Positions 16,723 through 18,461 of a DNA stretch of 26,896 nt are shown piece by piece (positions within the stretch are counted from its first letter, which is position 1; the number at the start of each line of letters is the position of its first letter). This DNA comes from Polyangium jinanense. Lineage in GTDB: Bacteria; Myxococcota_A; Polyangia; Polyangiales; Polyangiaceae. The stretch spans positions 230,900-257,795 of the forward strand of contig NZ_JAGTJK010000012.1 in assembly GCF_028435265.1 (NCBI RefSeq), written 5' to 3'. Below the pieces are notes generated by a model, which saw only the letters and a program-made list of their open reading frames with translations, ran no database searches and had not been told where the DNA came from. A program made the position numbers and the translations under genes.

Positions 16723-17373
16723 ATGCTCCCCGGCCGCGTGGAACGTTCGATCGGCGTGTATGGCGAGGAGTTGCTCCTCTGGATCTGCTCCGTGCGCCAG
16801 TCCCCGAGGCGTCCGCCCGCGGAGCATCTGCTCCAGCAGGCGAACTCCTTGATGAACGAGCTCAAGAGCTCGAAGGTGACCGACGAGCTGCCCGTCGTTT
16901 CCGCCGACGATGGCCAGTTCGCCATCGCGGCGATCATCGACGAGATCGCGATGAGCCTTCCGGACTTGCGTCCGCTCTGGTCGCAATACTCGCTGCAGGC
17001 CACACGCTGGTACACGACGAACGCGGGCGTGGAGTTCTACCAGCGCCTCGAGCGTGTGAAGGAAGGACCGAAGAGCGTGCTCGCCACGTACTACGTGGTG
17101 CTCGGCCTCGGCTTCCTCGGCAGGTTCGGTTTGCCCGGACAGGTGCAGTACGGCGCGACGCAGACGCGTATCGACGTGGCGCGGATCCTCGGCGTCGATC
17201 CGGATCGCGACTGGCACGCGGGCGCGCTCCGTCCCGTGCGCGAGGAGACGGTGCGCCCGATCGACCACCAGACGCCGTGGTGGAAATCGCTGTGGATGGC
17301 CCGCGGGATCGGGATCTTCTTCGTGGTCGTGGGCTTGACCCTGGTCATCGTCTCTGCCGTCGGGGGCAAGTGA
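16723..17373 (+). CDS. DotU/TssL/IcmH-family protein with a cytoplasmic domain and a C-terminal TM anchor
   Basis: It aligns block by block with enteroaggregative E. coli TssL as I recall it: [33 protein letters not shown], and the family-defining [18 protein letters not shown] (the LGF-GRY motif). One C-terminal TM helix ([18 protein letters not shown]). The start must lie downstream of the eno start at 16616, and the first in-frame ATG is 16723. Its stop TGA (17371-17373) overlaps the next ATG. Confidence 0.75.
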
Positions 17374-18461
17374 TGGCGAACGAGATCGGCCCGTTCACGC
17401 AAGAGATCGACGCGCTACTCGCGGCGATCGCGCAGAAGCACCCGAGCAAGAAGCCGCCCTACCAGGTGCCGATCTACCTCGTCGTCGGCGAGCCGGGGAC
17501 GGGGCGATCGACGGCGATCCGCTCGCAGTTCCTCACGTGGTCCGGCGGTGACGGCCCCTTGCCGCCCGCGTCGTCGACGCCGTTCTGCACGTACTGGATG
17601 GCCGACGAGTGCGCGTTCATCGAGCCCGAAGGTCACGTGATGGGCCCACGCCGCGATCCGGCGTTGCTGCAGGCGCTCTGCGAGGAGCTCTTGCGCAAGC
17701 GGCCGCGCGAGCCGCTCGACGCGCTCATCCTCGTGCTCAACGTCGCGGCCTTCGCCGACCTCGACGAGGCGGGCGTGCAGGCGTACGCGAAGAACTACCG
17801 CGACGTGCTCGTCGAGATCGGTCGGCACCTCGGCGGTGACGTGCCCACGTACGTCATCCTCACCCGCTTCGACACGGTCTGGGGATTCGCCGACGTGTTC
17901 CAGTGGACGCCCGAGCGCAAGCGCGAGGATCCGTGGGGATTCACGCTGCACCAGGAGGTGGCGCCGCAGGACGCGCTGCCGAAGATCCGCGAGGAGATCG
18001 ACGGGCTCGCCGCGCGCTTCGAGATGTTCTGCTTCGCCAAGCTCTCGGGCGAGGAACACGTCGACACGCGCATCCGCGCTTATCAGCATCTCGTGGAGGT
18101 GCGCGAGCTACTCGACCGACTGCGCATCCTCTTCGGCGTGCTCGCGATGCCGAACGCGTACGAGCGTGTGCCCTGGTTCCGCGCGCTCGCCATCGGCAGC
18201 GCGGTGCCCGGCGTCGGCGATCGGCAACGCGCGGGCGTGGCGAGGTTTCAGAGCATGGGCCTCTACCCGGCCTCGATGCCCCAGGGCATGCGGCCGGGCG
18301 GGCTGCCGATCCACGCGCTCGTCAAGACGGTCACGTTGCCCGAGAAGGAGCTCGTGCCCCTGCGTGTGCGCTGGCGCGACGACCTCGCGACGTTGATCCT
18401 CGCCGGCTCCGCGCTGCTCGTGTGGATCGCCGCGATCATCGTCGCGGGCGTGAACCGCTAG
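17373..18461 (+). CDS. Tail-anchored P-loop NTPase resembling the cytoplasmic NTPase domain of TssM/IcmF, with a degenerate Walker A (K replaced by R)
   Basis: PPYQVPIYLVVGEPGTGRSTAIRSQ resembles the TssM pattern (PWYLV-G-pGsGKTtll). The Walker A lysine codon is CGA (Arg) at 17505-17507. No clean Walker B is seen. There is a single C-terminal TM helix (LILAGSALLVWIAAIIVAGV), with only 4 residues after it, so there is no periplasmic domain. ATG 17373 overlaps the DotU stop (TGATG). Confidence 0.7.
   Translation: MANEIGPFTQEIDALLAAIAQKHPSKKPPYQVPIYLVVGEPGTGRSTAIRSQFLTWSGGDGPLPPASSTPFCTYWMADECAFIEPEGHVMGPRRDPALLQALCEELLRKRPREPLDALILVLNVAAFADLDEAGVQAYAKNYRDVLVEIGRHLGGDVPTYVILTRFDTVWGFADVFQWTPERKREDPWGFTLHQEVAPQDALPKIREEIDGLAARFEMFCFAKLSGEEHVDTRIRAYQHLVEVRELLDRLRILFGVLAMPNAYERVPWFRALAIGSAVPGVGDRQRAGVARFQSMGLYPASMPQGMRPGGLPIHALVKTVTLPEKELVPLRVRWRDDLATLILAGSALLVWIAAIIVAGVNR

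Follow-up and report, generated by a model that had tools for sequence, protein, structure and literature searches.

A conserved two-gene TssL/TssM-type module outside any secretion locus in Polyangiaceae, a candidate docking platform at the inner membrane

Can the cytoplasmic halves of a secretion-system membrane complex serve a purpose where no secretion machine is encoded around them? Studies of TssL and TssM normally treat them only as components of the trans-envelope channel of the T6SS (type VI secretion system), in which their cytoplasmic domains dock the baseplate. The question is raised by a 26,896-nucleotide stretch of the Polyangium jinanense genome (contig NZ_JAGTJK010000012.1, positions 230,900 to 257,795; "the window", G+C content ~70%), which carries a DotU/TssL-family gene (gene 1; 16723–17373, plus strand, 216 amino acids) overlapping a short TssM/IcmF-like gene (gene 2; 17373–18461, plus strand, 362 amino acids). 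The original prediction for this locus described the two as an orphan TssL plus a truncated TssM-type NTPase, perhaps co-opted as a membrane scaffold. Our analysis upholds the family assignments, the truncation and the isolation of the pair at its locus, but not the NTPase, and identifies the pair as a new variant of the TssL/TssM module. To the full account developed below we give an even chance: the pair would be paralogous to the cytoplasmic half of the membrane complex in T6SS, diverged, vertically inherited and specific to Polyangiaceae, and its products a lineage-specific, non-catalytic, tail-anchored TssL–TssM(cytoplasmic) complex that acts as a docking platform at the inner membrane.

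Gene 1 matches the Pfam DotU profile (PF09850) with an E-value of 1.5e-23 and 84 bits (gathering score 27) over profile positions 8–201 of 205. Its LGLGFLGRF motif, named as diagnostic in the original prediction, aligns with the L.LGF.G.Y block of the TssL structures 3u66 and 6y4r (weak matches), and the two results together bear out the DotU/TssL assignment. The score stays below the curated cut-offs of the NCBIfam DotU model TIGR03349 (77.4 versus 89.95 bits) and of the short-form TssL model NF038239 (44.5 versus 180 bits). A helical domain makes up most of the protein, and Kyte-Doolittle analysis reveals a single hydrophobic helix at residues ~189–212 (17287–17358, window scores above 1.8), followed by four residues. 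Across 66 orthologues, the median tail after this transmembrane (TM) helix is likewise 4 residues, and the DotU domain is expected to face the cytoplasm. Comparison with close Polyangium genomes gives a ratio of nonsynonymous to synonymous substitution rates (dN/dS) of 0.09–0.20 for this gene.

Gene 2 matches the Pfam IcmF-related_N profile (PF14331) with an E-value of 5e-42 and 144 bits (cut-off 25) over positions 3–257 of 259, so that both profile searches proposed with the prediction return significant matches; apart from this profile, it matches only two AAA models, far below their cut-offs. On the TssM model TIGR03348 it aligns to positions 91–446 of 1168, a segment that runs from TM2 to the end of TM3 and thus comprises the cytoplasmic domain and TM3. 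It remains well under the curated whole-protein cut-off of that model (136.8 versus 388.15 bits) and under that of the type IVB IcmF model NF038226 (31.2 versus 1000 bits). The N-terminal TM1–TM2 hairpin is absent, with nothing hydrophobic before residue 336 in the hydropathy profile, and all homologues begin at the same place. Neither periplasmic domain of TssM (PF06761 IcmF-related, PF06744 IcmF_C) is found in gene 2, which stops just past its TM helix; full-length myxobacterial TssM proteins carry PF06761 and, in most cases, PF06744. Lacking both the hairpin and the periplasmic domain, the protein cannot reach TssJ or the outer membrane. Profile alignment and hydropathy hence agree with the prediction that gene 2 corresponds to the truncated cytoplasmic part of TssM/IcmF with a single C-terminal TM helix.

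An AlphaFold2 model of gene 2 (pLDDT 83.7, pTM 0.80) comprises an α/β domain, a long region built as a helical hairpin and, at residues 338–361, a terminal helix, and the modelled fold is that of a TssM-type G domain; a sequence search of solved structures with gene 2 gave no match. The terminal helix coincides with the TM anchor in the hydropathy profile (residues ~338–361, 18384–18455), and the tail beyond it has a median length of 7.5 residues across orthologues. Directly before the anchor lies the family-specific juxtamembrane motif VPLRxRWRDD, of which R333, W334, R335 and D337 are invariant in 57 sequences. This motif, together with RPGGLP and ERxPWxRA, is invariant in the short family and missing from the canonical TssM consensus. 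Databases label gene 2 with the generic name "TssM N-terminal domain-containing protein"; since it fails the equivalog cut-offs and lacks several features that define TssM, it should not be filed as TssM.

We aligned the short family with residues 1–520 of 110 representative full-length TssM proteins and compared their nucleotide-binding motifs, as defined by Ma et al (2012; PMC3346141): Walker A GxxxxGK[ST], Walker B hhhhDxxG and (N/T)KxD. At Walker A (G1), canonical TssM reads GPPGxGK[TS]T with the lysine in 110 of 110 sequences, whereas the short family reads GxPGxGR[ST] with arginine in 113 of 119 members and lysine in only 5. At Walker B (G3), the canonical DTAGR (D in 110 of 110, T in 108, A in 107, G in 110, R in 108) is replaced by IEPEG or IEAGD (E-P-x or E-A-G-D). 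At G4, the canonical TKxD (lysine in 108 and aspartate in 110 of the 110) becomes [TN]RxD, with the aspartate kept. In the window, the three motifs read GEPGTGRST (17487–17513, with Arg45 in place of the Walker A lysine; PIYLVVGEPGTGRST spans residues 33–47), FIEPEG (IEPEG at 17619–17633, the position of DTAGR) and TRFD (17862–17873, the position of the guanine-specificity motif). The TssM-style P-loop region noted in the original prediction is therefore present, but its Walker A lysine is an arginine, and the reading of gene 2 as an NTPase does not hold up: the Walker A lysine, DTAGR and the TKxD lysine, 98–100% conserved in the 110 TssM sequences, are all replaced.

The losses are not spread evenly. 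Of 77 residues at least 80% conserved in canonical TssM, the short family retains 36, and the losses cluster at nucleotide contacts. The retained positions are mostly scaffold residues (P33, Y35, G39, G44, C72, W75, R110, P158, Y160, G171, F172, W188, G189, R270 and S276); Thr69 and Asp167, the latter in TRxD, are also kept. A deep relative (P0129, at metagenomic locus L078) has no recognisable P-loop at all (LCVSAFGKEAPH), with the rest of the protein and the gene order preserved. Judged by this alignment, the catalytic motifs of gene 2 are eroded, and the residues by which canonical TssM binds and hydrolyses nucleotide appear to be lost. In Agrobacterium, the association of TssM with TssL is independent of ATP binding or hydrolysis (PMC3346141).

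Is such a protein a family in its own right? Among 5.8 billion proteins we found at least 150 homologues of gene 2; each is 330–418 residues long and 47–94% identical, with a PF14331 match (one with an additional PF16101 match). The nearest are from Polyangium sp. y55x31 and 15x6 (98% protein identity) and P. fumosum DSM 14668 (97%). An exhaustive profile-free search over 1.84 billion cluster representatives revealed a score cliff: family members score 290–410 bits, one 347-residue deep relative 129 bits, and full-length TssM proteins of ~1200 residues ~100 bits at 25–30% identity. Among 57 diverse gene 2 sequences, 49 alignment columns are invariant. The dN/dS of gene 2 against close Polyangium genomes is 0.06–0.16; values against distant genomes are uninformative, with dS saturated or compressed at 90% G+C in third codon positions.

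We next scanned loci with one genome per species, and found the pair in 71 species genomes or loci, all of them from Polyangiaceae genera or unclassified myxobacterial metagenome-assembled genomes (MAGs), save one MAG labelled Desulfarculus. Carriers include Polyangium, Sorangium (So ce56, So0157-2 and So ce26), Byssovorax, Chondromyces apiculatus (locus L043), Minicystis rosea and many MAGs. The dotU gene lies directly upstream of the short tssM wherever the contig extends upstream (73 of 78 loci), and in 53 of 66 orthologous loci the two genes overlap by a stop/start of 1 or 4 nucleotides (TGATG or ATGA). In the window the overlap is the TGATG at 17371–17375 that had been predicted, with the gene 1 stop at 17371–17373 and the gene 2 ATG at 17373–17375. 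Enolase lies divergently upstream in 66 related loci. The most divergent relative, 32% identical, is found at 9528–13911 of metagenome contig SRR24975958_61097 (L078, 61% G+C), where dotU as called encodes 157 residues and its start is possibly mis-set. In Sorangium cellulosum So ce26, ~30 kb from the intact pair (L077, ~6060–6190), an otherwise unrelated reading frame contains a ~40-residue piece resembling residues ~205–240 of the short TssM (ILEELEGLNARLESYCLARVGSEDPPEARTRAFQHL), probably a gene remnant.

The isolation of the pair is equally consistent. We called the other open reading frames (ORFs) of the window by codon-position G+C and scanned them with Pfam: as predicted, no tss, hcp, vgrG, clpV or dot/icm gene is found among the scanned ORFs, leaving flanks of 16.7 kb upstream and 8.4 kb downstream of the pair free of T6SS genes. 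Pfam gene tables of seven related pair loci show no T6SS gene within ±10 kb either, which excludes the edge of a split T6SS locus as the source of the pair. A split TssM with its periplasmic part encoded nearby was also considered and is ruled out, as the scanned ORFs of the window and of related loci contain no IcmF periplasmic domain. The pair is an orphan at its locus, and its orphan status holds for the locus only.

On this evidence, how might the pair work? Both proteins are made from one translationally coupled transcript adjoining enolase and are tail-anchored in the inner membrane, their folded parts predicted to face the cytoplasm. The TssM-like G domain keeps its fold and many scaffold residues without the canonical residues for nucleotide binding and hydrolysis, and DotU and the short TssM would assemble into a TssL–TssM-type heterocomplex. 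Such a complex would neither energise transport nor form a channel; it may instead provide a non-catalytic platform for docking or assembly at the inner membrane's cytoplasmic face, recruiting partners by protein–protein contact. Precedents by analogy are the docking of the T6SS baseplate by TssL/TssM and the polar anchoring of the Legionella Dot/Icm system by DotU/IcmF. We lean towards a role no longer tied to the canonical T6SS membrane channel, and the earlier suggestion of a membrane scaffold co-opted for another function is, by the same analogy, plausible.

Several points weigh against this account. The DotU–short TssM complex is itself inferred. The P-loop outline GxPGxG[R][ST] is strongly conserved and an arginine can still contact phosphate, so that gene 2 may still bind nucleotide, and even slow hydrolysis is possible. 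Synteny with enolase may reflect inheritance and not function. A direct T6SS role for the pair is quite possible in a lineage so rich in vgrG and PAAR genes (PMC8651086, PMC13392464). As to what a platform would serve, our estimates overlap with the platform account: a T6SS-like machine encoded elsewhere is a tentative candidate, the β-propeller proteins encoded nearby (prop1 and prop2, below) a doubtful one and a nucleotide-dependent activity an improbable one, the remainder falling to some other partner.

The alternative that survives best, possible though on balance unlikely, is that the pair acts in trans as a part or regulator of a T6SS encoded elsewhere, by providing extra baseplate-docking sites or by sequestering proteins of the TssK/TssG type and thereby controlling firing. 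Both domains dock the baseplate in canonical T6SS, and the family is well armed. Polyangiaceae have the largest known vgrG/PAAR arsenals: Chondromyces apiculatus DSM 436 encodes 54 vgrG and 35 PAAR genes, the highest counts reported for any prokaryote (PMC8651086), and C. apiculatus also carries the pair. VgrG/PAAR/DUF2169 clusters predicted to form baseplate-like complexes occur in Polyangium fumosum and Sorangium (PMC13392464). KEGG- or BLAST-based surveys report T6SS genes in Polyangiales (PMC11821767, PMC10196010); since JGI annotates the pair as ImpL/VasK, such calls could be counting this very pair. Short pairs can also be T6SS accessories, as is illustrated in a Candidatus Thiothrix contig (JAYMYJ010000093.1; L081, 9319–11125), where an extra short DotU (231 residues) and short TssM (374 residues) lie inside a complete T6SS cluster. 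There the order is tssK, DotU, the IcmF_N-only gene, a kinase, DotU-OmpA, full-length TssM, TagF and PP2C, with fha and clpV also in the cluster; we found no paper describing this short pair.

The claim that the pair stands without the rest of a secretion machine therefore needs narrowing to the locus, given the many vgrG and PAAR genes reported for Polyangiaceae and the short pair inside the Thiothrix T6SS. Against a trans-acting T6SS part, no T6SS gene lies beside the pair, be it in the window or at the seven related loci, and this family has lost motifs that are 98–100% conserved in TssM, all of which the short Thiothrix copy retains. In addition, a search with a full-length Sandaracinaceae TssM returned many Sandaracinaceae, Hyalangium and Myxococcaceae proteins, and none of its top 120 relatives bears the name of Sorangium, Polyangium or Polyangiaceae, which hints weakly that Polyangiaceae may lack a close canonical TssM.

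Do the neighbouring genes offer a partner instead? Only the divergent enolase gene is universally conserved around the pair; the downstream gene varies by lineage. In the window, enolase (15342–16616, minus strand; Pfam Enolase_N and Enolase_C) lies divergent from the pair as predicted, its start codon at 16616 separated from the dotU ATG at 16723 by a 106-nucleotide intergenic region (16617–16722) that presumably holds the promoters of both. A scan of 16400–19800 found no sigma-70 consensus promoter or intrinsic terminator, and an Rfam scan of the whole window gave no match. Enolase is a conserved divergent neighbour and surely unrelated in function. We considered and rejected a conserved third gene: downstream of the pair there is none here, and elsewhere an M14 peptidase, a lysozyme-like protein or an unknown protein. 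Two such downstream genes, when compared, are unrelated to each other, and neither has a remnant in the window. The pair and its three downstream neighbours match no PADLOC-DB anti-phage defence model.

Beyond the pair lie a convergent gene for a DsbA-like thioredoxin-fold protein (18615–19496, minus strand; Pfam Thioredoxin_4 and DSBA), syntenic in 17 loci, and two candidate partner genes, prop1 (19509–21098, plus strand) and prop2 (21095–22474, plus strand), which overlap as ATGA. Prop1 is predicted to comprise an N-terminal zinc ribbon, a TM helix, a Cys-rich segment and a periplasmic β-propeller, the last with a faint YNCE match. Prop2 is likewise predicted to have a zinc ribbon, a TM helix and a periplasmic propeller; its AlphaFold2 model (pLDDT 82.9) places the zinc ribbon at residues 1–30, a low-confidence linker with the putative TM helix at 31–95 and the propeller at 109–459, and its sequence matches generic WD40/YVTN-like propellers. 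The N-terminus of the DsbA-like protein contains LLVSALLASAC, which we read as a lipoprotein signal with a lipobox cysteine, and its gene adjoins prop1 with the Cys-rich periplasmic segment (CTSPCWHGEACQVGQC); a role dedicated to disulfide formation in this neighbour is possible.

These genes allow a second, doubtful alternative, in which the pair makes up the cytoplasmic half of an envelope module with four or five genes, with prop1 and prop2 supplying the periplasmic half in trans and the DsbA-like protein helping. At L078 the order is enolase, divergent, then dotU, short tssM, prop1 and prop2, the last four on one strand. The prop genes follow a convergent dsbA in Polyangium, one Byssovorax, Chondromyces and several MAGs, lie 7 kb downstream of the pair in Minicystis and ~7 kb off, beyond enolase, in Sorangium So ce26, and probably lie near the pair also at L082; in all the named genera the distance is ~10 kb or less. 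Prop1 and prop2 are conserved across Polyangiaceae at 61–97% identity, and the prop2 homologues with names among the listed matches are all from Polyangiaceae, the range of the pair. The predicted topologies are complementary, a cytoplasmic pair and periplasmic propellers with small cytoplasmic zinc ribbons, and dotU–tssM and prop1–prop2 are each translationally coupled. Overall, the arrangement fits an ancestral block of enolase, dotU, short tssM, prop1 and prop2 that is slowly breaking up.

The linkage is, however, broken at L001, L002, L003, L005 and L083, where the 10 kb around the pair hold no prop1/prop2. In the window, dsbA lies between the two gene pairs on the opposite strand, so that they are not co-transcribed. 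The propeller fold is generic, and enolase is just as syntenic yet surely unrelated, which makes synteny weak evidence here. A functional link between the pair and prop1/prop2 is a lead, not proof. More speculatively, and with a low probability, the tail-anchored, NTPase-dead TssL–TssM(cytoplasmic) dock might replace TssJLM in Polyangiaceae, its periplasmic reach provided in trans by prop1/prop2; if true, a contractile or other envelope machine would be anchored here by a novel architecture.

A 153-bp insert (18462–18614) exactly separates the stop codons of the convergent genes short tssM and dsbA. It folds into five consecutive hairpins (minimum free energy –98.6 kcal/mol, z = –9.5), has CTAG on both sides (18458–18618) and carries 20-nucleotide subterminal inverted repeats. 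The insert is missing in five related Polyangium genomes (L007–L011), in which a single palindromic CTAG provides the overlapping stop codons of both genes. We found no further copy in the window or among the fetched loci. The stretch has the look of a small insertion akin to a miniature inverted-repeat transposable element, with the CTAG target duplicated and both reading frames intact.

We think it improbable that gene 2 is an active TssM-type NTPase or nucleotide-dependent switch that energises or gates some membrane process. Its modelled fold is a G domain, the GxPGxG[RK][ST] outline persists with a few members retaining lysine, and Asp167 of TRxD and Thr69 are kept. Yet arginine stands at Walker A in nearly the whole family, the Asp/Gly unit of DTAGR is gone, the NKxD lysine has become arginine, and the deepest relative has dispensed with the P-loop while keeping the rest of the protein. 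In Agrobacterium TssM, a Walker A mutation reduces ATP binding and hydrolysis and a Walker B mutation reduces hydrolysis, and both abolish Hcp secretion (PMC3346141). Finally, the reading as a decaying remnant, with gene 2 a frameshifted tssM or a pseudogene, or the pair what is left at the 5' end of a T6SS locus that was split, can be set aside: although gene 2 spans only about one third of canonical TssM and the ORF list behind its discovery was purely mechanical, its length is conserved in at least 150 homologues and 71 species genomes, many columns are invariant, dN/dS is 0.06–0.2 over the two genes, the start/stop overlap is conserved, and the scanned ORFs of the T6SS-free window show no IcmF periplasmic-domain match.

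The remaining genes that Pfam identifies in the window belong to neither T6SS nor Dot/Icm: besides those described above, they encode a PHP protein, a CysAWT-type ABC transporter, a universal stress protein, an RNA-recognition motif (RRM) protein and an M1 peptidase, and there is a Bat/VWA operon. The Bat-like operon (1964–8106, plus strand) encodes DUF58 and BatA/VWA proteins and a protein of at most 1123 residues (stop-to-stop frame) with VWA and GATase1-like domains, and is ordinary-looking for the lineage. The RRM-domain RNA-binding protein (14719–15258, plus strand) ends in a ~70-residue C-terminal tail made almost entirely of glycine and arginine; the synteny of its RRM part with enolase extends to Sorangium, Minicystis, two Byssovorax MAGs and Polyangium fumosum.

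What does the pair add to the picture of TssL and TssM? Our literature searches on orphan or short TssL/TssM pairs and on Polyangiaceae T6SS found no description of it, in keeping with the original claim that it had not been described as a defined system. A selected, family-wide version that consists of the cytoplasmic halves only and has lost the nucleotide motifs indicates that the two-protein module can stand alone, and it supports the idea of a portable membrane docking unit, which so far has come mainly from Legionella DotU/IcmF. It also offers a natural minimal system for the roles of the TssM G domain apart from hydrolysis. For genome annotation it is a warning that homology-based "T6SS present" calls in Polyangia may count this pair, and for the vgrG-rich Polyangiaceae it is a candidate missing link in the anchoring of their injection machinery.

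Set beside known systems, the pair is closest in plan to the T6SS membrane complex. Gene 1 shares with short-form TssL its DotU domain and C-terminal TM anchor; gene 2 shares with TssM the cytoplasmic IcmF-related_N domain, made up of a G-domain fold and a helical domain, and a helix equivalent to TM3; the order, tssL then tssM, is the same, and nearly half of the conserved canonical residues persist (36 of 77). Unlike TssM, gene 2 has no N-terminal hairpin and no PF06761/PF06744, its Walker A lysine, DTAGR and TKxD lysine are replaced, its identity to TssM is only 25–30%, and the pair lies outside any T6SS cluster; both proteins also fall below the T6SS models, gene 2 that for TssM (136.8 versus 388 bits) and gene 1 that for DotU (77.4 versus 89.95 bits). 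Pseudo-GTPases, scaffold G-domain proteins without catalytic motifs, offer a functional analogy to gene 2, with no specific homology.

The Legionella Dot/Icm DotU–IcmF pair is likewise a TssL/TssM-type pair out of T6SS context, there serving as anchor and assembly factor of another machine. Legionella DotU and IcmF reach the poles unaided, and the type IVB secretion system acquired them from T6SS by co-option (bioRxiv 10.1101/315721). Legionella IcmF differs in being full length, with a TM hairpin and a periplasmic domain; gene 2 scores 31 bits against an IcmF_IVB cut-off of 1000, and the Pfam scans of the window found no dot/icm gene near the pair. The Thiothrix short pair comes closest in architecture, a 231-residue DotU followed by a 374-residue IcmF_N-only protein that ends in a TM helix, encoded by overlapping genes. 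Its short TssM, in contrast, keeps GKT, DTAGR and TKMD and is only 27% identical to gene 2, which points to an independent duplication. The Polyangiaceae version is set apart from it by its genomic isolation and by the loss of these motifs.

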